A stretch of DNA of 64,000 bases from a phage. How positions within the stretch are numbered: position 1 is the first letter of the stretch; every line of letters begins with the position of its first letter. The notes under the pieces were generated by a model. The model saw only the letters and a list, made by a program, of their open reading frames with translations. It was not told the DNA's origin and searched no databases. Shown piece after piece: positions 24,582 to 50,063 of the stretch. The stretch lies in NCBI GenBank assembly GCA_025823825.1, contig GCA_025823825.1_4720.1. One strand, given 5' to 3'. The position numbers and the translations under genes were made by a program.

Positions 24582-26333
24582 ATGAGCGAACAAGAACGAA
24601 AACCTAAGAAGAAACTGCTCGGTATTCAATGTCGACACATCAGTTATAACGAAGCGAACGATGGCAGCAAGAACGACCTCATGATCGCAAAAGAGATCAT
24701 GTTCTTTGATGACAATACGCAAGCGACGAACCTTCGCTTCTTTGAGAATTACAAACGTCCGTTTTGGGTGACGGTAGAGAGTAAACGTAAGAACAAATAT
24801 AAAAAGGAAAGCGAGAAGCTCTCGCATGTGCGTCGCTACGATGTCCGCCAAAGCGAACTGGTTGAAAAGATCAGCTCGGTACTTTATAAAAGACGTGCTG
24901 ACGATAACACCCGTTTACAGCAGCTTGCACGGAGTCCATACCTCTATGGAACGGACGTTAGCGCCAGCTGTTATTTAAAAACCCAGTACAACACAAAATG
25001 GCCGGAATACGTCGATAAATTACCCGCTTCCATTGCCTGTTTCGATATCGAAACCGACGTTGTCCACGGACACGGTAAGATCGTTTGTATGTCTATTACA
25101 ATGGGATACAATGCGATACTTTGCTATACCAAGGACTTCGTTGGTCATATTCCGAATGCCATTGAGAAAACCCATGAGAAGATTCGATATTACCTGGCCG
25201 AACGTCTGAATACCAAAGAAGATCCCCACGCATTCGAAAAATATCAGTACGATGTTCGAATCGTAGAAAGCCCGGCACAAGCGGTCATCCAATGCATGCA
25301 GAAGGTTCACGAATGGCAGCCGGATTATCTCCTTGGCTGGAATATCGCGTTCGATATTCCGCGTATGCTCCAGGCACTGAACGAGGAAGGGTATCGTCCC
25401 GAGGATGTTTTCTCCGATCCTCGCGTACCACCTAAGTATCGTATTGCTCGCTGGGTGCCACCGAAGACCGACAAGGTATCTGCTTCAGGTCGTAAAACCA
25501 ACCTTACCCTCGAGCAAACCTGGCCGATGTTTTATACGATGGCTACGTATCAGGTTATGGATGCGATGTGTGGTTATAAGTTCGTTCGTTTAGGAAGACC
25601 GGATGAAGGACGCTATTCACTCGATGCGGTATTAGAGCGAAATAAATGCCATACGAAATTAAAAGCAATTCCTGGTACAGAAGGGTTCACGGAGCTCGCC
25701 TGGCACGAAGAGATGCAAACGAACCATCAAATCGACTACGGCGTATATAACCTTTGGGATAACCAGGGTATTGAGGCGTTGGACCAGAAAACAAAAGACT
25801 ATTCGATGACCATCCCTATCCGTTTAGCGGCGTCGGATTTGAAAGATTTCAGTTCTAACCCTAAACGTATCTGCGATAAACTTTTCTTCGTTTATCTTAA
25901 CCGTGGGGAAGTCATGGGATGTACCGCTGACGACATGACCCAGGAAGAAGATAAGTGGGTTATCTCACGAGCTGGACATATCGTCACATTACCATGCGAT
26001 CTCATGGCTGACAACGGCATTCATCTCTTCTGGGATATGCCGAACCTGAGAAGTTATATCCGTCTATTCGTTGCAGACCTTGACATTAGCAGTTCATACC
26101 CAAATGGGCAGATCCTGTTGAATCTATCCAGAGCATGTGTTTTTCGTGAGCTCTCGCGCATTGAGGGCGTCTCTGACTATCAATTCAGGAAGTTAGGTAT
26201 CAACTTTATTACCGGAGGTAAAACGAACGCTGTAGACTTCTGTAGAATCGTTTATAAAGCACCGTCGATGTTTGAACTTTTAGAACATTTCGATGCGACG
26301 CGTCCAAAAGAGGAAGCGCGGACCATCGAATGA
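24582..26333 (+). CDS. family B DNA polymerase N-terminal part: 3'-5' exonuclease domain plus palm motif A; motifs B and C absent (583 aa)
   Basis: Exo I FDIETD, Exo II WNIAFD, Exo III-like YNLWD, motif A-like DLDISSSYP; ORF stops about 75 aa after motif A with no KxxxNSxYG or YGDTDS. Confidence 0.65.
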   Translation: MSEQERKPKKKLLGIQCRHISYNEANDGSKNDLMIAKEIMFFDDNTQATNLRFFENYKRPFWVTVESKRKNKYKKESEKLSHVRRYDVRQSELVEKISSVLYKRRADDNTRLQQLARSPYLYGTDVSASCYLKTQYNTKWPEYVDKLPASIACFDIETDVVHGHGKIVCMSITMGYNAILCYTKDFVGHIPNAIEKTHEKIRYYLAERLNTKEDPHAFEKYQYDVRIVESPAQAVIQCMQKVHEWQPDYLLGWNIAFDIPRMLQALNEEGYRPEDVFSDPRVPPKYRIARWVPPKTDKVSASGRKTNLTLEQTWPMFYTMATYQVMDAMCGYKFVRLGRPDEGRYSLDAVLERNKCHTKLKAIPGTEGFTELAWHEEMQTNHQIDYGVYNLWDNQGIEALDQKTKDYSMTIPIRLAASDLKDFSSNPKRICDKLFFVYLNRGEVMGCTADDMTQEEDKWVISRAGHIVTLPCDLMADNGIHLFWDMPNLRSYIRLFVADLDISSSYPNGQILLNLSRACVFRELSRIEGVSDYQFRKLGINFITGGKTNAVDFCRIVYKAPSMFELLEHFDATRPKEEARTIE

Positions 26334-30534: not shown

Positions 30535-30637
30535 ATCGAATTCCTTAAATTCTCTTGAGTTCAATTAATGATGAAAAGCTGTAAAAAAAAAAAAGGTGGG
30601 GCGAACCCCACCAAAACGTCAGACACACGCGGGAAAA

Positions 30638-41552: not shown

Positions 41553-42194
41553 TTAGATGTACTGCTTACCGCCCACGAAGGAAGTTAACCAGTTCCCGCT
41601 GACGAGTTGTGATACCCAACCTGGAACGGCTCTACCATTCTGGCTCATGATGTTACCACACCAACCAGGGAATCCGGGACGGATGTAATAGAAAGTTAAA
41701 TTGTAGAGATGGCAATTCCATACCGCAACGTTATGTTTACCAGAAACCGCTTTAAAGATAAACGCGACAGGTAACGGAGACGATAACAATTCGGTCACAG
41801 GGACGGCTGACCAGTTCGCATTCGCGTTCCATGGTTGCCAGGTATGGCTACGCGAGTCACCGTTAACGTTACCGTTGCTACCGCGTCCGCCCGCGTTCCA
41901 CCAAAGCGATGGACTCATGTTCTTAAGTGAGGTAAATTGCTGTGGTGGAATATTCGGAATGATAACAGGGTTGGTACCTTGTCCGTGTTTCTTTTCTTTT
42001 GCGTTCACATAGCCGTTTATCGATTCCAGGTATTTGGTACCAGGATAATTGTTCTGGACTTGTGTCGCAATATCACGAACATCGAACGTCCAGCAGATCA
42101 TGGTGTTGTAGTAAGCATCGGTGTTGTCGTACCATGCGTTACCATCTTGTAAACGTGCGCCACTATTCGGTGTTTTATCTGTGTTTATAGCCAT
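41553..42194 (-). CDS. hypothetical protein (213 aa), paralog of 42306-43022
   Basis: C-terminal IRPGFPGWCGNIMSQNGRAVPGWVSQLVSGNWLTSFVGGKQY nearly identical to neighbour. Confidence 0.7.
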   Translation of the reverse strand: MAINTDKTPNSGARLQDGNAWYDNTDAYYNTMICWTFDVRDIATQVQNNYPGTKYLESINGYVNAKEKKHGQGTNPVIIPNIPPQQFTSLKNMSPSLWWNAGGRGSNGNVNGDSRSHTWQPWNANANWSAVPVTELLSSPLPVAFIFKAVSGKHNVAVWNCHLYNLTFYYIRPGFPGWCGNIMSQNGRAVPGWVSQLVSGNWLTSFVGGKQYI

Positions 42195-42305: not shown

Positions 42306-43022
42306 TTAAATTGAAGTTAGATATTGTTTACCTCCAACAAACGACGTTAACCAATTACCTGAAACAAGTTGCGATGCCCAGCCAGGCACTGCCCTACCGT
42401 TCTGGCTCATCACGTTACCTGCCCATCCCGGAAAACCCGGTCGGAAAATATATACTTGAATATGTGTTAAAGCGTTATCATTACCACTGCCAACAGCAAC
42501 GTTACGACTCCCAGATGACGGGAAATATTCTTTTAAGAACAGAGGATCGGTTGCTAATAAAGATGCGGGCCAAGGGTTCGCGGATGCATCAACATCGAAT
42601 TCGGTCCATCGCCATTTACGTCCCGTGTCGAACCATGTCGATGTACCACCACCCCTCACGGCAAGATTGCGCGCATCACGGACATTATAAATTGATTCGA
42701 TGTTACGCCATCCACCTTTTGCAGCGTTTGCTGCATAGCAAACCGCATTACCACCATTCTTCTTCTCGTAAACGGTTCGTTTGATATGAACACGGTCGAT
42801 GAACGCTTCACCGTATTTGTTGACGAGCGTTTGTGCGATATCACGAAGATCGTGCATGTGAAAAGCGATGTCTTCGTTATGGAACCATGTTGTCTGGTTC
42901 CAGACGGTACCGTTTGGTTCGGCACACATCGATCGGATATTGTTGCGTTGATTAATCGCGATAAAACCCATTGTATACCTCGTTCCTATTCTCAAAAAGG
43001 AAATTTCATACGATGACGCCAT
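42306..43022 (-). CDS. hypothetical protein (238 aa from internal ATG), paralog of 41553-42194
   Basis: Internal ATG (MASSYEISF); the upstream residues of the track ORF are a translated hairpin element whose arm GGAGGAGC serves as SD. Confidence 0.7.
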   Translation of the reverse strand: MASSYEISFLRIGTRYTMGFIAINQRNNIRSMCAEPNGTVWNQTTWFHNEDIAFHMHDLRDIAQTLVNKYGEAFIDRVHIKRTVYEKKNGGNAVCYAANAAKGGWRNIESIYNVRDARNLAVRGGGTSTWFDTGRKWRWTEFDVDASANPWPASLLATDPLFLKEYFPSSGSRNVAVGSGNDNALTHIQVYIFRPGFPGWAGNVMSQNGRAVPGWASQLVSGNWLTSFVGGKQYLTSI

Positions 43023-43026
43023 AGCA

Positions 43027-43056
43027 GCTCCTCCTTCCCTTACGGGTTGGAGGAGC
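43027..43056. repeat. GC-rich hairpin element whose arm provides the SD of 42306-43022
   Basis: Minus-strand reading GCTCCTCC-AACCCGTAAGGGAA-GGAGGAGC-TGCT-ATG. Confidence 0.6.
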
Positions 43057-43064
43057 ATACTTAA

Positions 43065-43571
43065 TTACTCGCTGATAACCTCAACGGAATTGGGATCAGC
43101 GATCATCGCACGGTCAGTAGAACAATTGAAGAAGACCATGCCGACACCATCGCCGTTCGAGTTCAGGGTTGAACTTACGTAAGACAGGGTTGGTTTATTC
43201 ATGCGGTAGAAGCGTTCGCTGGTAGCGGTATTGAACCCCAGATCAACGTAGTCTTTCACCGTGGTATACAACTGTGTGGATTCGAAAACGGTTACCGGAG
43301 AGTCGACGGTAAACTGACTACCTTCATCCACAACCAGAACTTTATCGTTCCAGATTTCAGTGGTTGAAAACTTCGGTTTCCAATGTTCGAATTCCTGGGT
43401 TGCTCCCCAGCAGGAATACACAGCGAGATTGCTGTTCTTCTCAACCGGTTTCAATCCCACCAGTTGTGTCAGGTCTTTATCCAGGTTCGGTAAGCCTTCC
43501 AGCGTAGCGCACCCACCCAGAGAAAGTACCATCAACATACCAAGAATAATCGCGCAGAGTTTCTTCATCAT
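43065..43571 (-). CDS. putative lipoprotein (168 aa)
   Basis: Signal peptide MMKKLCAIILGMLMVLSLGGC with lipobox-like LGGC. Confidence 0.7.
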   Translation of the reverse strand: MMKKLCAIILGMLMVLSLGGCATLEGLPNLDKDLTQLVGLKPVEKNSNLAVYSCWGATQEFEHWKPKFSTTEIWNDKVLVVDEGSQFTVDSPVTVFESTQLYTTVKDYVDLGFNTATSERFYRMNKPTLSYVSSTLNSNGDGVGMVFFNCSTDRAMIADPNSVEVISE

Positions 43572-43619
43572 TAGATTTCCTTATGTGTTAACGGAAGTGA
43601 CTTCCATAAGGATTGATGA

Positions 43620-44072
43620 TTACTTTTTGAGCGCTTTAAGTTCTTCTTCCAACGCTTCCACTTTTGCCGTAAGCTTCTGTACTTGTTTGATTAATGGAAC
43701 CACCAAACGTTCGTACATAACACCTTCAGCGACGAGTCCGTTAGAAGAAACGATAGCGGGGTCATCTTCTTCGGTTGCATCACGCCAGTGCACGTACTGC
43801 GGTGCGATCTCACCAACCTCTTCAGCAATCAACCCATACCAACCCCAATCCTTGTTGTCTGCTTCACATGTGGAACGATACCAAACAGGACGCATCTCCA
43901 ATACTTTATCCGCTTGTTCATCCGTGATATTCTCGATATCTTTCTTATAGCGACGCGACGACGTTGAACGAAACACATTGTTGATCCCAGAAACAGGACT
44001 GATATACATGTTAGCCCCGCTGGTTGTAGTGCTAATGTCCCATACCGCAAATCCGCCGTTACTCCCATTTTT
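43620..44072 (-). CDS. S74-type intramolecular chaperone-like domain, open frame out of phase (+1) with upstream tail fiber gene; probable frameshift-fused fiber C-terminus or homopolymer artefact
   Basis: SSRRYKKDIENI...WYGLIAEEV...PQYV...YERLVVPLIKQVQKL...LEEELKALKK matches the auto-processing chaperone pattern; frame open from 44072, first ATG only at 44009; A7 run at junction. Confidence 0.55.
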   Translation of the reverse strand, partial: KNGSNGGFAVWDISTTTSGANMYISPVSGINNVFRSTSSRRYKKDIENITDEQADKVLEMRPVWYRSTCEADNKDWGWYGLIAEEVGEIAPQYVHWRDATEEDDPAIVSSNGLVAEGVMYERLVVPLIKQVQKLTAKVEALEEELKALKK

Positions 44073-47000
44073 TTACGATCAATGTGTTGGCAATAATGTC
44101 CAGGTTATTGTCGTAACCGGTTAATTGTCTTTCCGTTACATAACTGGATAGATTGACCGAGTAGTTCTTACTGTTATAACAACGACGCCATCCTGGGCTG
44201 TTGGTACTGCCATTATAGTTGTCGTAGCTATAAATGAACTCGGAGTTGGTTTTCGCACCACTGACGGAAGACGTGGTTGCGGTCGTAACACGGATGGTAT
44301 AGTTTGTCATCCCGAAGCTAACGACCTCGATAACAGCACCAGCCAGAGGGATAATACCGCACTTGGTTTCACTGTCTGGGATGTATGCGCTGTCGGCAGC
44401 TGCGAAGGAGCAACGTGCGACCCAGGCGCGGGTATTGAATGCACCTTGGTTTTGCAACAACGTGATAAACGATGAGGTCGTAATCGAGCTGTTATTATCA
44501 CCGGTGATCAACCAGCCGGTCGGGCATGCGGTTGCGCCAACGTTTTTCGCTGTTAACGTGATGTTCTGCGATCCGTCGAAGGCTACGCCACTGATAGTGC
44601 GCGCAGTCTGCAGTTTCGTCGCCGTTGCTGCGTTCCCTGATGTGTTCTGGTTCCCTGCGGCGTTAACACCCGGCAGATTGATATTCGCACTACCGTCGAA
44701 AGACACCCCACCAATGGTGCGGGCGGTTTTCAGTTTTGTCGCCGTGGCGGCATTACCGGTCGTGTCTTGGTTACCGGTGGTGTTTACCCCAGGTAGGTTG
44801 ATATTGGCCGTTCCGTTAAATGAAACACCACCAATCGTCCGTGCCGTTTGCAACTTCGTTGCGGATGCCGCATTCCCCGTGGTGTTTTGGTTACCTGTTG
44901 TATTCACACCTGGGATACTATCCTTAGATGTGTAGATCTGTGCCCATTCCGACCAGTTCGCATCTGATGCATCACGACGCGAACGTAGGTAAGCTGGAGC
45001 GTGTGCGCCTGAAGTACCTGACCATCCAATAAGGATCTCACCTTCACCTACTGCGGTTGCTCCTTTAAGATGAACAACGTTACCGTAGGCTGTAGGGTAT
45101 CCGTTATTGTACGCTTCATACATCTGGATGCCCGTATTGCTGCCCTGGGTCGCATTAGCTAAAGCGGTGACTCGTCCCATGGAAGCGAGCACGTTAATGC
45201 TAAAGCTAATATCAGTTGTACCATCAAAGGCGACCCCATTAATCTTCCGTGCTGTTTGGAGTTTCGTGGCAGTAGCCGCATTACCAGAGGTACTCTGATT
45301 ACCTGCTTTGTTCACGCCTGGTAAATCAATGTTGGCGGTTCCATCAAAGGACACACCCCCTATGGTTCTCGCCGTCTGAAGTTTTGTTGCTGAACCGGCG
45401 TTTCCGGAAGTGCTTTGATTACCCGCCGCGTTAACACCCGGTAGGTTAATGCTAGCAGAACCATCAAAAGAAACACCACCGATTGTGACAGCCGTTTTCA
45501 ATTTCGTGGCTGTCGCAGCGTTACCCGTTGTATTCTGATTGCCAGCTGCATTGACGCCAGGTAATGCGATATCAGCTGTGCCATCGAACGCGACACCGCC
45601 TATTTTACGGGCGGTTTGTAGCTTGGTTGCTGTAGCGGCATTACCGCTGGTATTTTGCGTACCGGCTTTATTTACACCGGGAAGATCGATGTTAGCAGAA
45701 CCGTCGAAGCTGACGCCACCTATTGTTCTTGCGGTAGCGAGTTTAGTTGCTGTGGTTGCAGCATTACCAGCCTTTAACCATTCGCCCCATGGGCCATCCA
45801 CGCCGTTCCATGAAGCTGTTAAACTACGTACGTAAATATTTCCTGTACGTACGGTGTAACGCTGTGTTCCACCGAATTGCCCAGCTGGGAGCACTTCGAT
45901 GTAACCTACTGCGTTTGCTTCAGGGAAATTGTGGGCAGCATCAGCATTCGTTGACGTTTGTTTGGACCAAATACCCACAGACGCTTCAACCGGACCGTAG
46001 GTATTTAGATTCGCATCGGTGGGAAGCTGTCCTCGGAAACGTCGGAATAATGAAGCTGTTAACCCCAACGTTGTTTGCATCCCTTCAATGCTTGACTGCG
46101 ATAAAAGCGCCCGAGCTGTCGACGTGATAGCCGCTAAAGCAACCTTATCCGTACCGGTAAAATACGGGAATTTGTTTGCTGAAGTTGCTAAACCTGAAAG
46201 GGCGGTCAGTAATGCGTTAAGGGGTTGTTTCCCAGCCAGCGCGTTAGTTACTGTTGTTGCGAAATTAGGGTCGTTGCCTAAAGCTTGAGCCAGCTCATTA
46301 AGCGTATTTAGCGCTTCTGGCGACGAGTCGATCAGTGATGCGATAGCACGCATCACAAATTCCGTGTTGGCGATCTGTTGACTGCTATCGTTATCTGCAG
46401 CCGTAGGTGCTGCTGGGATACCGGTGAACACAGGGTTATTAAGATCTGCCTTGAGAGCGATGAGACGTCTAAGCGCTTCGACATCGACTTTCAGGTTTTC
46501 CCATCCGACGAGATAACCATCACCGGTTGTATGATAACGGTTGTACCAAAAATCACCATTGACACCGAAATAGAATATTCCTTTCTCTTCGTATTGTGGG
46601 CCGGAACTGTTCCGTGATGAGCTAATGTATTTTATTTCGATAAGGCCGTCGAATACCACTCCTGGGATGATTTTATTATTTCCAGCTGGCTGTGATACTT
46701 GGTACATCCCCGGGGTTGCGGCTTTAACCCACGTTAAGAATTCTGTTACTCCGGCGCTACCACTGAAATTCTTAACGTCGGTAAGTATCGCCCCATAACC
46801 GAACATACCGGGTAGAGCAACTCGTCCGCTGGTACGGTCACGAATATTTGATGCGACGACAGGCAGCTGTTTACGAACATTGTTAACCGCCTTAGGTGTG
46901 GCCGATTTTGTCTCGTCATCGCTATCGATGGCGTTGCTCAGGATGGTCAGTCCTCGAGTATTTGTGGTCGCATCAGGAAGAAACGCGTTATCCAACACCT

Positions 47001-47418
47001 TAAGTTGTACAGCGCTCGTGTTACTAACAACGAGATACATCTGACAGTTAAGAACGCTGGATGCACCTTCAGTAGGCACCGGCTTATATCTTTCCGGTGC
47101 GCTGCAAACAGCGATCAGAACACCCTGATCGTCATACAGACCGATTTCACGTACCCAGAATCCACCTTGGTTTACAGGAATAATACCCTCAACAATAATC
47201 CTGGTTGTGTCATCCGTATCGACACGGATATTAGCAACTTCCCCACGATAAACTTCGTGTACGAGCGCTGTTTGACCAACAGCCGGTGTCGGTATCGACC
47301 CGTTACCATCGCCAACAGCAAAATGTGTGATTTTTAGTTTCTCGCCACCAGGAAGTAGTGCGGCGGCGATACGTTCAGCGCCTTTATCGGTAATGACCGT
47401 TTTATATGTTGTACTCAT
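44059..47418 (-). CDS. tail fiber protein (1119 aa) with P2 gpH-like N-terminal domain and tandem 33-aa fiber repeats
   Basis: N-terminus TVITDKGAERIAAAL...ITHFAVGDGNG...GQTALVHEVYRG...GGFWVREIGLYDDQGVLIAV resembles the P2 gpH / lambda Stf fiber N-terminus (from memory); 8-9 repeats of TARTIGGVSFDGSANIxLPGVNxAGNQxTSGNAATATKLQ. Confidence 0.85.
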   Translation of the reverse strand: MSTTYKTVITDKGAERIAAALLPGGEKLKITHFAVGDGNGSIPTPAVGQTALVHEVYRGEVANIRVDTDDTTRIIVEGIIPVNQGGFWVREIGLYDDQGVLIAVCSAPERYKPVPTEGASSVLNCQMYLVVSNTSAVQLKVLDNAFLPDATTNTRGLTILSNAIDSDDETKSATPKAVNNVRKQLPVVASNIRDRTSGRVALPGMFGYGAILTDVKNFSGSAGVTEFLTWVKAATPGMYQVSQPAGNNKIIPGVVFDGLIEIKYISSSRNSSGPQYEEKGIFYFGVNGDFWYNRYHTTGDGYLVGWENLKVDVEALRRLIALKADLNNPVFTGIPAAPTAADNDSSQQIANTEFVMRAIASLIDSSPEALNTLNELAQALGNDPNFATTVTNALAGKQPLNALLTALSGLATSANKFPYFTGTDKVALAAITSTARALLSQSSIEGMQTTLGLTASLFRRFRGQLPTDANLNTYGPVEASVGIWSKQTSTNADAAHNFPEANAVGYIEVLPAGQFGGTQRYTVRTGNIYVRSLTASWNGVDGPWGEWLKAGNAATTATKLATARTIGGVSFDGSANIDLPGVNKAGTQNTSGNAATATKLQTARKIGGVAFDGTADIALPGVNAAGNQNTTGNAATATKLKTAVTIGGVSFDGSASINLPGVNAAGNQSTSGNAGSATKLQTARTIGGVSFDGTANIDLPGVNKAGNQSTSGNAATATKLQTARKINGVAFDGTTDISFSINVLASMGRVTALANATQGSNTGIQMYEAYNNGYPTAYGNVVHLKGATAVGEGEILIGWSGTSGAHAPAYLRSRRDASDANWSEWAQIYTSKDSIPGVNTTGNQNTTGNAASATKLQTARTIGGVSFNGTANINLPGVNTTGNQDTTGNAATATKLKTARTIGGVSFDGSANINLPGVNAAGNQNTSGNAATATKLQTARTISGVAFDGSQNITLTAKNVGATACPTGWLITGDNNSSITTSSFITLLQNQGAFNTRAWVARCSFAAADSAYIPDSETKCGIIPLAGAVIEVVSFGMTNYTIRVTTATTSSVSGAKTNSEFIYSYDNYNGSTNSPGWRRCYNSKNYSVNLSSYVTERQLTGYDNNLDIIANTLIVKKWE
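44540..45760 (-). repeat. in-frame tandem repeats of about 99 bp (33 aa) inside the tail fiber gene, two blocks
   Basis: Repeated peptide unit read in translation; coordinates back-calculated from protein positions, approximate. Confidence 0.7.
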
Positions 47419-47424
47419 GGCGTT

Positions 47425-47952
47425 TTATCCCGGGTAAATAGTGATGGTGTCACCAACGATAGTTGTAGCACCGGCGTAAAGATACGCTGGTGATGCCTCA
47501 CGTTGGTTTGTCACGATAAGATCCAGTCTCCCACGCCAAACCACGGAGGTATTCGCGATGGGAATCGAGATCTTCTTGGAAGTATCGTCACGAAAATTAA
47601 TGGCGGTAGCAAGGGTAACTGAATCAAAATCAACGTCGGGTTCAAAGTTGAATCCGTATTGATCTGAAATAGCTTGAATAACCGCTCTTATGGTTGTTGT
47701 TTCAACCGACTCCAAAACGATTTTTATCGGTATTCCTAGAAATGCTTTCGCGATATCACGTCGTGTGTAAGTGATAAAACTTTCACCACACCACCTTGTT
47801 CCTTCATTTGCTGTGACGATCACTTTTGCCCTGTTAGCACCAGAACTCCCATCCAGGGTTAAAGTGAGATCGGAGTTGCTGAATACACTACCGTTACGTT
47901 GGTTTATCAACGTAATAAGTTCGTCTTTCCATGGTGGGTAAAGTGAACGCAT
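47425..47952 (-). CDS. short protein (175 aa) made mostly of the shared RBP N-terminal anchor domain
   Basis: Internal ATG (MRSLYPPWKDELITLINQRNG) preceded by GGAGGAGGG; aligns with N-termini of 38918 and 48108 genes (RRDIAKAFLGIPIKIV...DQYGFNFE). Confidence 0.65.
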   Translation of the reverse strand: MRSLYPPWKDELITLINQRNGSVFSNSDLTLTLDGSSGANRAKVIVTANEGTRWCGESFITYTRRDIAKAFLGIPIKIVLESVETTTIRAVIQAISDQYGFNFEPDVDFDSVTLATAINFRDDTSKKISIPIANTSVVWRGRLDLIVTNQREASPAYLYAGATTIVGDTITIYPG

Positions 47953-47975
47953 ATGCGCACCCTCCTCCAATAATC

Positions 47976-48020
47976 AAATTAAAATGCAAAACGCCTCGAA
48001 ACCAGGGTGCGATTCGAGGC
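47976..48020 (-). terminator. putative intrinsic terminator (hairpin GCCTCGAA-N12-TTCGAGGC followed by U-rich tract on minus strand)
   Basis: 8-bp stem, then GUUUUGCAUUUUAAUUUG on the minus-strand transcript, downstream of 48108-49862. Confidence 0.4.
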
Positions 48021-48107
48021 AAACGTAAACAGTCTTAACGACCGCATAAAATTCCGCGCATATTACCCCCCCCCCTCGACGAAGCGAGGTAGAGGAGGAT
48101 AACACGA

Positions 48108-49862
48108 TTATGCTGCTACATACCCAGGCCAACGTTCTCTTGGCCAGTTTGTTGCGCCCTGTCCAACGTTGTCCTTACCAGAAGTTACATTACTTACATC
48201 CCAACCACTAAGATCCTGGTTAAATGCGGTGTTGTTACGCATCATGAGGTCGATATTACGTAATGATTGGGTATTCCAGCCGGAAATGTCTTGGTTGAAT
48301 GCCGTGTTGTAAGCAAACATGTTAACAACGTTTTGTAATTTTGAAGTGTTCCAGCCGCTAATATCGCCATTGAACTGCATGTTCGAGAACATACTGCTAG
48401 CATCGATAAGACTATCTGTTTTCCAGTTAACCAGCTTGTTCTCATCAAGTGCGTTGCAACTACTGAACATGTAACTCATGTTGTTAACTTTGGATACATC
48501 CCATTTATCTAACCCGTTACCAACGAACTCGTAACAAGCTTGGAACATCCAGCTCATGTCGGTAACCTGGCACACATTCCATTTGCTAAAGTCGAGGTTG
48601 AGTTTTGCGCATCCGGAGAAAGTTTTATACATACTGGTGATACGACTAACATCCCATTCTTGAATGTTAGGATCATTAAGTATAGATAAGAATTGGAACA
48701 ATCCGTCTAACGACGTCCATTTCTCTGGAATACGGTTTGGTACTGTACGGAGCGATGAAAGGTTATTGGTTGACGGAGAGCGGAACATACCGTTATCCCA
48801 ATTTACGATTTCCGTAATGTTGTACCCACGGATCGTTTGGCGTCCATTACCATTATACACAGACCCTGTTGCAGTTATTGTATATTCGTTTGTATCAGCA
48901 TACGTATATTCAGCCTGTGTAGGCCACTCACCTATTACATCCCTATTCCCATCACCCCAGTCAATGGAAATATCTATCCAACCATCAAGATCTAGGGTAA
49001 CGGTCCCGCCATTGGTCTTCAGGATGTATTTACCTGCATTGTCGGTATAATAACAAACAATCATCGCACCGTACAGGTTACCAATTTGCCAATCATCCTT
49101 TTGAGTTACCGCGATTTGTGCTGTACCACGCTGTAAGAAAAGTACCGTACGGTTCTCGTCAGTCTGTAGTGCGGTTAGTGCTTGAGTCTTATCATCGTCG
49201 GTAATTTCACCGGCTTCCATTAAAGCACTTAACATTCTTTCGAAGTACTCGATAGGCAACTGAGGTCCTACCGACATATCAACTGATGGAACAGTGAGAT
49301 CATCCAATGCTGCTGCCGTTGCGAGGACTAATGATCCCTTGGCGGTGTCTGTTTCTTGGAGGTAACGCAGTCCCGTAATCTGGTACGCTTGAATGATTGT
49401 AATCAGATCCAGTGTATCGTTAATGACCTGTACTTGTAAATGTCCAGACCAAACATAGCTGCTTTCAGCAATCGGTAATTCGACCGACTGAATACCCGAC
49501 GTTTCAAAACTGATCTTCTTATTAAGATCGGCTTCCAGGAAATCAACAGCTAGGTCGAAATTTATACCGTACTTCTCAGCGATGGAATCTACAATGTTCC
49601 TGAAAGCAACATCGGTACTTACGATGAAACGTAACGGGATCCCGGTGAACGCGTTGGCAATATCTCGACGAACATACGTGAGCGACTGCTCGAAGAAATA
49701 AGGACTGTTATCTCCAGGTTTGATGGTTACCTGGCATACTTCAGGATGTTCAGCTGGAATGAAAGATTCGAATTTAACGTCGGTTTCCTTCAACGATAGC
49801 ATGTTCTTCCGGTTTACCAACGCCAGAAGATCAGCTTTCCACCCAGGATAAACTGTAGACAT
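48108..49862 (-). CDS. putative receptor-binding protein (585 aa): shared N-terminal anchor domain plus C-terminal DUF285/BspA-type repeats
   Basis: Internal ATG (MSTVYPGWKADLLALVNRKN) with GGAG RBS; C-terminal repeats ...MFxxxxxFNQDISGWNTxxxxNxxxMF... typical of the Mycoplasma DUF285 / BspA-like family. Confidence 0.7.
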   Translation of the reverse strand: MSTVYPGWKADLLALVNRKNMLSLKETDVKFESFIPAEHPEVCQVTIKPGDNSPYFFEQSLTYVRRDIANAFTGIPLRFIVSTDVAFRNIVDSIAEKYGINFDLAVDFLEADLNKKISFETSGIQSVELPIAESSYVWSGHLQVQVINDTLDLITIIQAYQITGLRYLQETDTAKGSLVLATAAALDDLTVPSVDMSVGPQLPIEYFERMLSALMEAGEITDDDKTQALTALQTDENRTVLFLQRGTAQIAVTQKDDWQIGNLYGAMIVCYYTDNAGKYILKTNGGTVTLDLDGWIDISIDWGDGNRDVIGEWPTQAEYTYADTNEYTITATGSVYNGNGRQTIRGYNITEIVNWDNGMFRSPSTNNLSSLRTVPNRIPEKWTSLDGLFQFLSILNDPNIQEWDVSRITSMYKTFSGCAKLNLDFSKWNVCQVTDMSWMFQACYEFVGNGLDKWDVSKVNNMSYMFSSCNALDENKLVNWKTDSLIDASSMFSNMQFNGDISGWNTSKLQNVVNMFAYNTAFNQDISGWNTQSLRNIDLMMRNNTAFNQDLSGWDVSNVTSGKDNVGQGATNWPRERWPGYVAA

Positions 49863-50063
49863 AAGCACTCCAATCATGGGGGCGAACGCCCCCCATCAGT
49901 TAAATGATCGTTTACGTCGCGTAAGGGTAATATAATTGCTGTGAGCCATATCAGAAGTTCACAACATTCTGAATCATAAGGTTACGTCGTTGGAAACAAA
50001 CCGATACAGATTCTTCATAGAACATTGAGATGATGGAAACCTAATTCGTACCATGAAAGCCGC

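Follow-up and report, generated by a model that had tools for sequence, protein, structure and literature searches.

In the tail fibre pb1 (LtfA) of phage T5, the C-terminal intramolecular chaperone (IMC) of the Peptidase_S74 family is cut off at the Thr1263-Ser1264 bond, with Lys1269 as the accompanying residue (PMC4690869). Together with the T5-like chain 8hqz_d, pb1 exemplifies a long trimeric fibre that carries a C-terminal S74 domain of about 113-133 residues. This domain has a Thr/Ser scissile bond (the slash marks the cleaved bond here and below) with a lysine at +5, and its alpha/beta core is followed by a coiled coil at the end. The IMCs of the K1F endosialidase endoNF (3gw6) and of the GA-1 neck appendage (3gud) as well as the ICA of MyRF (7dc3) fall into the same Pfam family. 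Fibre genes are also known in broken form. In lambda PaPa, a frameshift in the accessory side-fibre gene stf abolishes the fibre while the phage survives and persists in laboratory stocks, as far as the work of Hendrix & Duda (1992) is recounted in PMC12617516. In Warwickvirus phages (Drexlerviridae), a mini-fibre of 231 aa, also called a "lateral tail fibre chaperone" (for instance bas05_0029 of PeterMerian), contains an IMC. Its gene is disrupted in orkinos, AV105 and JLBYU19 by a homopolymer insertion (C5 to C6) that demands a +1 correction. Together, the Warwickvirus breaks and the lambda stf frameshift show that lesions of this type are common in accessory fibres.

The DNA analyzed here, a stretch of 64,000 nucleotides referred to as the window, stems from a Goslar-like jumbo phage with about 94% nucleotide identity to Goslar. 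Its tail fibre is the orthologue of the Goslar virion protein gp90 (gp090) over the N-terminal two thirds, and locus and flanking genes are orthologous as well. The similarity ends at a cassette comprising fibre tip and IMC which, as judged by sequence comparison, stands in for two parts of Goslar, namely the C-terminus of its fibre and gp089, a distinct gene for a Caudo_TAP tail-fibre assembly protein (Tfa). A tblastn search with Goslar gp089 gave no match in the window, the downstream open reading frame matches S74 only and no Caudo_TAP gene was found downstream of the fibre. The Goslar tip needs a trans-acting Tfa, whereas the window and seven relatives possess a tip-plus-IMC arrangement. 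The lambda Stf fibre relies on a separate Tfa chaperone, unlike the fibre in the window.

As written, the fibre reading frame consists of an N-terminal Phage_tail_fib collar, a Phage_fiber_2 repeat, about ten GNAATATKLQTAR..GGV.FDG repeats and a distal tip domain, and terminates with NTLIVKKWE at the junction ATC GTA AAA AAA TGG GAG TAA on the minus strand (Table 1). Hence the IMC is not the in-frame C-terminus of the fibre but sits in the +1 frame behind a run of seven adenines. The last stop of this frame is located at 44075..44073, from 44072 it remains open down to the stop at 43622..43620, and its translation reads K NGSNGGFAVWDISTTTSGANMYISPVSGINNVFRSTSSRRYKKDIENI...KALKK. An earlier note on this DNA had described a 1119-aa fibre ending in LIVKKWE at 44059, a different frame open from 44072 and no ATG with a ribosome-binding site in that frame ahead of 44009. 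All of these elements were recovered on the minus strand, and the first ATG is indeed 44009. The A7 run is the sole homopolymer of at least six bases between positions 43000 and 48000. Long runs are scarce in this genome, and among the 19 homopolymers of at least six bases in the 64 kb the junction run is not unusual. Deletion of one A yields a protein of 1265 residues, and the fused and cleaved product is predicted to give the tryptic junction peptide NGSNGGFAVWDISTTTSGANMYISPVSGINNVFR. On sequence evidence, we consider it about 90% probable that fibre and S74 chaperone belong to a single gene whose homopolymer has gained one base, and that this change is not a programmed recoding signal.

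Table 1. Features at the fibre/IMC junction of the window.
Feature	Position	Strand	Remarks
Tail-fibre ORF as written, 1119 aa	44059..47418	-	stop TAA at 44061..44059
A7 homopolymer at fibre/IMC junction	44068..44074	-	GTA AAA AAA TGG; T7 on plus strand
+1-frame segment K-NGSNGGFAVWDISTTTSGANMYISPVSGINNVFRST	43962..44072	-	predicted last ~36 residues of mature fibre, upstream of cleavage site
Peptidase_S74 IMC, 113 aa	43623..43961	-	alpha/beta core and C-terminal coiled-coil helix; stop 43622..43620
Predicted scissile Ser codon	43961..43959	-	
Lys (+5) codon	43946..43944	-	
Fibre tip plus IMC cassette	43609..44536	-	no nucleotide homologue in Goslar
Internal ATG (44009..44007) with SD-like GCGGGG (44020..44015)	44007..44020	-	possible independent start, putative

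An S74-like identity of the +1 frame, proposed in the earlier note, was borne out by a profile search with Pfam Peptidase_S74 (PF13884; E = 1.8e-9, 38.1 bits at a cut-off of 22, profile positions 1-57 of 58), with a match that begins exactly at the predicted scissile serine. In phmmer searches, the frame aligned with the C-terminus of the T5-like L-shaped tail fibre 8hqz including the TS....K pattern, such that the motif RST/SSRRYK is placed over GTSGIEYK and Thr/Ser...Lys is retained. Residues R34, S35, T36, S37, S38, Y41 and K42 are each conserved in at least 90% of 32 homologues. The segment preceding the cleavage site is homologous to in-frame fibres of Escherichia albertii, E. coli prophages and Warwickvirus phages, with T14, T15, N20, R34, S35 and T36 nearly invariant. 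This homology sets in four residues past the A-run, upstream of ATG 44009. Both the identification of the S74 IMC and the homology from the A-run onward lie far beyond chance. An AlphaFold2 model attained a pLDDT of 80 overall and above 90 over the domain (residues 45-149), with a helix at 119-148, and the top PDB matches of this model in Foldseek were 7dc3, 3gud and 3gw6, all of them IMC/ICA structures. On the strength of the Pfam match, the Thr/Ser...Lys motif and the predicted structure, the +1 frame encodes a complete Peptidase_S74 IMC, for which autocleavage would be expected from sequence and by analogy. The relationship to T5 pb1 and 8hqz_d comprises a direct sequence match and an IMC-type predicted fold, but the T5 IMC is in frame while that of the window lies one base out of frame, the upstream tip domain of the window shows no kinship with the "bullet" domain of T5, and T5 is a siphovirus whereas the window derives from a Goslar-like jumbo myovirus. 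With 3gw6, 3gud and 7dc3 the fold is shared according to the structure search; identity amounts to just 11-27%, however, and the cargo in the window is a fibre, in contrast to the tailspike enzyme and the transcription factor among these proteins.

Relatives of the cassette, designated L005 and L016 to L021, were recovered solely via protein-level searches. In all seven of them, originating from seven different samples, fibre and IMC are encoded in one frame, and A7 occurs only in the window. The junction reads GTC GTA AAA AAT GGG in L005, L016 and L017, GTA AAA AAC GGG in L018, L019 and L020 (A6 in all six cases) and GTA AGA AAT GGG in L021, where the run is interrupted. Instead of a chaperone gene of its own, L016 (GCA_007524145.1) and L017 (GCA_008106945.1) feature one unbroken reading frame of 1480 aa that begins with the ATG of the fibre and ends with the stop codon of the IMC. 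The last 311 residues of the A-deleted protein matched P0001, an in-frame protein from an ENA metagenome, with 100% identity and 100% coverage according to the search, two or three substitutions being visible by eye. P0002 and P0003, also in frame, are 97% and 96% identical to the A-deleted protein, and P0004 from E. albertii is 59% identical across 99% of the query, straight over the junction. The statement in the earlier note that such domains normally form the in-frame C-terminus of the fibre thus holds for the seven close relatives as well as for 62 of 62 homologue clusters. These 62 are the IMC-containing cluster representatives among the 120 matches listed, and they have at least 42 residues ahead of the scissile serine in every case and at least 75 in 60 cases.

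In a comparison of four sequences, variable codons were synonymous throughout, both in the IMC frame (9/9) and among those scored in the upstream fibre frame (11/11, leaving out an Ile/Val codon beside the run), which indicates that the IMC frame is under purifying selection in this group. The window IMC frame exhibits no sign of decay, since it contains just one private substitution. The downstream frame is perfectly preserved; this would be expected as well if it were still expressed, a point that speaks against reading the extra A as a plain lesion. Near-identity DNA searches among phages retrieved Goslar alone, with the junction not covered, and among complete E. coli genomes they retrieved no match. 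An exact-pattern scan for the A6-A8 junction in IMG/VR, GTDB genomes and JGI metagenomes likewise gave no match. The truncated fibre of 1119 aa was not on record in an exact look-up, leaving the A7 allele without an independent sighting.

Apart from one gene split by a homopolymer sequencing error, the earlier note had considered that programmed +1 frameshifting or transcriptional slippage fuses chaperone and fibre. A split of one gene by a change in homopolymer length is supported, as fibre and IMC are in frame in the seven relatives and the A-deleted protein matches P0001, whereas recoding is not supported, as neither tract nor two-frame layout is conserved and no stimulator was found. A +1 ribosomal frameshift or RNA polymerase slippage on A7 as the normal route to the fusion, perhaps fixing a ratio of short to long products, could draw on the intact IMC frame and on the outcome of either event: exactly the wild-type VKNGS results if tRNA-Lys moves by +1 between the two overlapping AAA codons or if the transcript loses one A. 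In phiKZ-like jumbo phages such as Goslar, furthermore, transcription of the late genes is carried out by a non-canonical RNA polymerase of the phage. On the other hand, the two-frame layout is absent from all seven relatives, the slippery site is not conserved and even interrupted in L021 (AGA AAT), the upstream sequence ACATTGATCGTA is devoid of an SD-like element, and the next codon, AAA, places neither a slow nor a stop codon in the A site. Folding of the downstream RNA (MFE -28 vs. a shuffle mean of -28.6, z = 0.16) gave no stimulatory structure, and A7 stays below the runs of nine or more bases that lead to efficient slippage with E. coli RNA polymerase. Literature searches returned nothing relevant on frameshifting in IMC fibres nor, within titles and abstracts, on transcriptional slippage in tail fibres; a paper by Sharanji deals with an unrelated phage. 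We therefore rate programmed recoding as highly improbable. A classical -1 slip on A_AAA_AAA leads to the third frame (79-aa ORF) and not to the IMC frame. Less probable than any other explanation weighed here is an IMC encoded by its own gene of 129 aa starting at ATG 44009, whose product would act in trans on the truncated fibre in the way that Goslar's separate Tfa does. GCGGGG lies at a spacing of 5 nt from this ATG, with a duplex energy of -5.6 kcal/mol (gene median -6.2) that ranks in the top 10% of background ATGs, and two NCBI assemblies list the 129-aa product among their gene calls. In both assemblies, however, the frame is really continuous over 1480 aa, so that the call is a gene-calling quirk, and in the relatives the bases of GCGGGG and ATG are kept inside the continuous ORF, where they encode SGANM. 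Homology and synonymous-only variation extend past the ATG up to the A-run, a free-standing IMC is not found in any of the 62 IMC-containing clusters among the matches listed, and the truncated fibre would be deprived of about 36 conserved mature residues including the threonine of the scissile bond. In T5, moreover, the cleavage chemistry depends on a triple beta-helix that lies upstream in the same trimer and has folded correctly (PMC4690869). By analogy with that structure, an IMC probably cannot act in trans.

Reversible switching of the fibre through A6/A7, as reported for poly-G contingency tracts in Campylobacter phages, appears very improbable. It is in line with the difference in tract length between window (A7) and relatives (A6), with the C5/C6 polymorphism of the homologous Warwickvirus junction, where the gene is broken in three isolates from different laboratories, and with a potentially viable OFF state, because the phage has other host-recognition fibres. 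Yet A-runs of six to seven bases mutate far more slowly than typical contingency tracts, the OFF allele is confined to one of eight sequences (one A7, six A6 and one interrupted tract in the window plus seven relatives), and the run is wholly lost in one relative. The Warwickvirus case is close in that IMC and about 35 preceding residues are 59-65% identical to the window; it differs in that a short coiled-coil mini-fibre is affected instead of a 1265-aa fibre and in that the homopolymer consists of C rather than A. A scan of IMG/VR for the Warwickvirus C5/C6 junction gave a single match, a C5 allele.

For a single gene split by one additional A, we propose the following. In the normal state, a precursor of about 1265 aa (1480 aa in two relatives) would be made, its C-terminal IMC would trimerise, nucleate folding of the fibre tip and then cut itself off between Thr and Ser (RST/SSRRYK) by means of its Ser/Lys(+5) pair, in the manner of T5 pb1 and the K1F endosialidase. 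In the window, the extra base turns A6 into A7 and puts the final 150 codons out of reach in the +1 frame, with translation ending after VKKWE. The extra A may be a recent real insertion that amounts to a full or near knock-out of an accessory fibre, comparable to lambda PaPa stf as far as that case is described, or a homopolymer error of the assembly; from the sequence, the scales tip only slightly toward a real insertion. A generally error-prone assembly is weakly disfavoured because none of the approximately 55 genes shared with Goslar is shortened or split between frames, no further gene in the 64 kb is broken, and the remaining coding runs of at least seven bases, of which the window has just four, are intact. 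The lesion differs from that in lambda stf in that it resides exactly at the fibre/IMC junction and is possibly not real. Were the insertion real, the truncated fibre would presumably have lost its function, and full-length fibre would arise only by rare events, i.e., A7-to-A6 revertants, slipping of the RNA polymerase or tRNA-Lys moving by +1 on AAA-A. Any of these would restore exactly the wild-type V-K-N-G.

For annotation, the two reading frames are best entered as a single fibre gene with a frameshift, unless a check of the reads leads to a correction, and neither as a fibre with an independent "chaperone of endosialidase" nor as a recoding event. A real A7 allele would point to a fibre that is dispensable on the propagation host. 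It is very improbable that a working fibre is still produced despite a real extra A, be it by a late RNA polymerase slipping efficiently on A7 or by a reversible A6/A7 on/off switch; if true, this would be a nucleus-forming jumbo phage with a tunable accessory fibre. Of modest biological interest, yet useful for host-range prediction, is that the fibre tip encoded at one and the same locus of Goslar-like jumbo phages depends on Tfa in some of them and on an IMC in others.

The end of the fibre ORF, the A7 junction, the frame lying +1 to the fibre behind it and all coordinates are exactly as described in the earlier note. All genes concerned are located on the minus strand of the window, where the junction reads ATC GTA AAA AAA TGG GAG TAA. 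In agreement with the claim that the chaperone frame lacks an upstream start, its earliest ATG is found at 44009.

Features of the window, junction DNA of seven Goslar-like relatives with the same tip-plus-chaperone cassette (L005, L016-L021) and lesions in the mini-fibre gene of Warwickvirus isolates
Feature	Position or source	Strand	Remarks
Fibre ORF, 1119 aa, ending ...IIANTLIVKKWE	47418..44059	minus	stop TAA at 44061..44059
A7 run	44074..44068	minus	sole homopolymer of at least 6 bases within 43000-48000
+1 frame, product K-NGSNGGFAVWDISTTTSGANMYISPVSGINNVFRSTSSRRYKKDIENI...VEALEEELKALKK	open 44072 to 43620	minus	preceding stop 44075..44073 overlaps the run
Junction GTC GTA AAA AAT GGG	L005 (ENA), L016 (GCA_007524145.1), L017 (GCA_008106945.1, 241-kb phage-sized contig)		
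Junction GTA AAA AAC GGG	L018, L019, L020 (three further ENA samples)		
Junction GTA AGA AAT GGG	L021 (Logan SRR6504847)		
Warwickvirus C5-to-C6 insertion, TTTTTACCCCCC junction	L001 (orkinos), L002 (AV105), L012 (JLBYU19)		position homologous to the A-run of the window
Warwickvirus 1-nt deletion	L011 (ityhuna)		
Warwickvirus Tyr-to-stop change, the same in both	L010 (EC195), L013 (JLBYU07)		
Other coding runs of at least 7 bases	1839, 12213, 34812, 36886		all within intact genes
G10 tract, intergenic	48066-48075	minus	upstream of 175-aa DUF7941 gene, just past CCTCG...CGAGG hairpin
A12 run, intergenic	30583-30594		A8 in Goslar
589-aa DUF7941/DUF285 gene	48108-49877	minus	in place of Goslar 1198-aa tail protein gp092 plus gp093
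250-aa gene	42306-43058	minus	between gp087 and gp088 orthologues
213-aa gene	41553-42194	minus	neighbour and paralogue of the 250-aa gene
DNA polymerase ORF, continuous, 583 aa	24582-26333	plus	junction near 26078-26097

Fibre and Peptidase_S74 intramolecular chaperone (IMC) very probably (about 90%) constitute one gene split at a homopolymer. When the last 311 residues of the 1265-aa protein created by in silico removal of one A served as query, a metagenomic ENA protein (P0001) matched in a single frame (...IIANTLVVKNGSNGGFAVWD...) with a reported 100% identity over 100% of the query, of which by eye two or three residues differ, e.g., Ile/Val next to the run. Proteins P0002 and P0003 (97 and 96% identical) are likewise in frame, and P0004 (512 aa), a fibre from a prophage of E. 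albertii, matches right through the junction with 59% identity across 99% of the query. Compared with the seven relatives, GTA AAA AAA TGG is confined to the window, and L016 and L017 feature one unbroken 1480-aa ORF from fibre start to IMC stop. A 129-aa IMC product is recorded as a separate gene in GCA_008106945.1 (L008/L017) and GCA_007524145.1 (L009/L016); as the ORF is continuous there, we rejected this entry as an independent IMC gene and regard it as a gene-calling quirk. The 1480-aa ORF is missing from the gene lists for these two contigs of Goslar-like phages (241 and 145 kb). In L021, the source of P0003, the fibre is cut down to 362 aa, its N-terminal collar being fused directly to the final ~40 tip residues plus IMC, and the extreme C-terminus is also frameshifted (...KLTAKSGSAGRRT in place of ...KLTAKVEALEEELKALKK).

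The S74-like nature of the downstream frame, proposed earlier from the sequence, was confirmed by a Pfam Peptidase_S74 match (E = 1.8e-9, 38.1 bits, cut-off 22 bits) that begins at the Ser of RST|SSRRYK. In T5 pb1, cleavage at Thr1263|Ser1264 frees the chaperone and Lys1269 activates the serine (PMC4690869). The window shares the corresponding TS....K with 8hqz_d, a T5-like L-shaped tail fibre whose C-terminus was aligned to the IMC region by phmmer against PDB sequences, TS....K on TS....K and terminal helices included. Among 32 homologues, R34, S35, T36, S37, S38, Y41 and K42 are conserved to at least 90%. An AlphaFold2 model based on this alignment reached a mean pLDDT of 80, with values >90 for most of residues 45-149, and the PDB entries that it matched best are all intramolecular chaperones (7dc3, the MyRF ICA domain, E = 8e-5; 3gud; 3gw6). 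Residues ~1-35 were modelled poorly, as expected if they form part of the mature fibre's end, where the chains of the trimer intertwine.

In a comparison of the window with L005, L016 and L017, all nine variable codons of the IMC frame are synonymous, two of them located between A-run and ATG, and the same holds true for 11 of 11 scored variable codons in the fibre frame upstream of the run, from which the Ile/Val codon directly before the run was excluded. Downstream of the run the window carries a single private substitution, so the IMC frame has not decayed: either the lesion arose recently or is an artefact, or this frame continues to be used. Related phages encoding the chaperone as an independent gene, which the earlier note had considered, were not encountered: among the matches listed, at least 42 residues precede the scissile Ser in all 62 IMC-bearing cluster representatives and at least 75 in 60 of them. 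Judged from these listed sequences, a free-standing IMC would not be a trait of this S74-IMC fibre family.

An independent trans chaperone is very improbable. Initiation at ATG 44009 is conceivable, as this codon is preceded by GCGGGG and its anti-SD duplex energy (-5.6 kcal/mol vs. a median of -6.2 for 51 window genes) places it among the best 10% when all ATGs are ranked. Yet the relatives have conserved these bases inside their uninterrupted ORF, a fibre truncated in this way would be short of ~36 conserved mature residues and of the Thr that precedes the scissile bond, and the T5 cleavage chemistry requires a correctly folded upstream trimer (PMC4690869). Of the explanations offered in the earlier note, the splitting of one gene at a homopolymer is upheld by relatives that are in frame through the junction, whereas programmed frameshifting or slippage yielding a fibre-IMC fusion is very improbable: a recoding site should be conserved, yet none of the seven relatives has the two-frame layout, and in L021 a G interrupts the tract. 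Moreover, the required shift is +1, while the textbook -1 slip on A_AAA_AAA enters the third frame (79-aa ORF), the wrong one; there is no SD-like stimulator upstream of the run, the A-site codon is neither slow nor a stop, and a 131-nt segment spanning the site and extending downstream is no more stably folded than shuffled sequence (z = 0.16). With E. coli RNA polymerase, slippage is efficient on runs of at least nine bases, a figure that does not refer to the phage's own late polymerase, and A7 is shorter. On the other hand, if tRNA-Lys occasionally re-paired at +1 (from AAA to the overlapping AAA) or the mRNA lost one A, exactly V-K-N-G would be restored, making low-level leak-through to full-length fibre plausible. 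That A6/A7 acts as a phase-variable switch is hardly more probable than programmed recoding.

For the split gene, a real insertion of the extra A is favoured slightly over a sequencing error; the event is ordinary in either case. About 55 genes common to the window and Goslar all align full-length in a single frame. Such intact genes argue weakly against a generally error-prone assembly, since long runs are few (19 of at least 6 bases in 64 kb). Accessory fibre genes are frequently inactivated in propagated phages, which speaks in favour of a real lesion; in laboratory lambda, stf, an accessory fibre gene as well, is hit by a frameshift (PMC12617516). In Warwickvirus (Drexlerviridae), the homologous S74-IMC mini-fibre of 231 aa is broken in several independent isolates and intact in PeterMerian, BEBK14 and tunzivis; its C5-to-C6 insertion needs the same +1 correction as A7 in the window. 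These lesions suggest that the fibre is lost recurrently or that the boundary between fibre and IMC is a hot spot for homopolymer changes. The intergenic G10 and A12 tracts may be variable in length, as homopolymers this long are otherwise scarce in the genome.

The window shares 94% nucleotide identity with the nucleus-forming jumbo phage Goslar across 84% of a 24-kb query. Several differences lie outside the fibre gene. The 589-aa DUF7941/DUF285 version is also present in L005 and L016, the 1198-aa version being kept in L017 and L021; this locus is a second exchangeable host-recognition cassette, adjoining the fibre. The 250-aa gene is without Goslar counterpart, shares the C-terminal motif PGFPGW.GN.MSQNGRAVPGW.SQLVSGNWLTSFVGGKQY with its 213-aa paralogue and is represented by a 221-aa gene in L018-L020. 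In Goslar (region NC_048170 81190-82966), the DNA polymerase orthologue is annotated with 499 aa, followed by the NUMOD1/HNH endonuclease gp069 within a ~1.8-kb insertion and a 3' part of the gene devoid of annotation; the insertion, which is missing from the window, resembles a mobile element of homing-endonuclease or intron type.

Downstream of the Goslar fibre gene, which encodes the virion protein gp090 (1324 aa, P1 gpS-like), the Caudo_TAP assembly protein gp089 has a gene of its own, whereas in the window the chaperone is built into the fibre gene. Nucleotide similarity breaks off at 43608 and restarts at ~44537, and a search of the window for gp089 gave no match; the fibre tip and its trans chaperone have thus been replaced by another tip that brings its own chaperone. 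Goslar-like phages carry several further host-recognition fibres. The feature is an S74-IMC tail fibre, gained by a Goslar-like jumbo phage via cassette exchange and bearing a trivial lesion.
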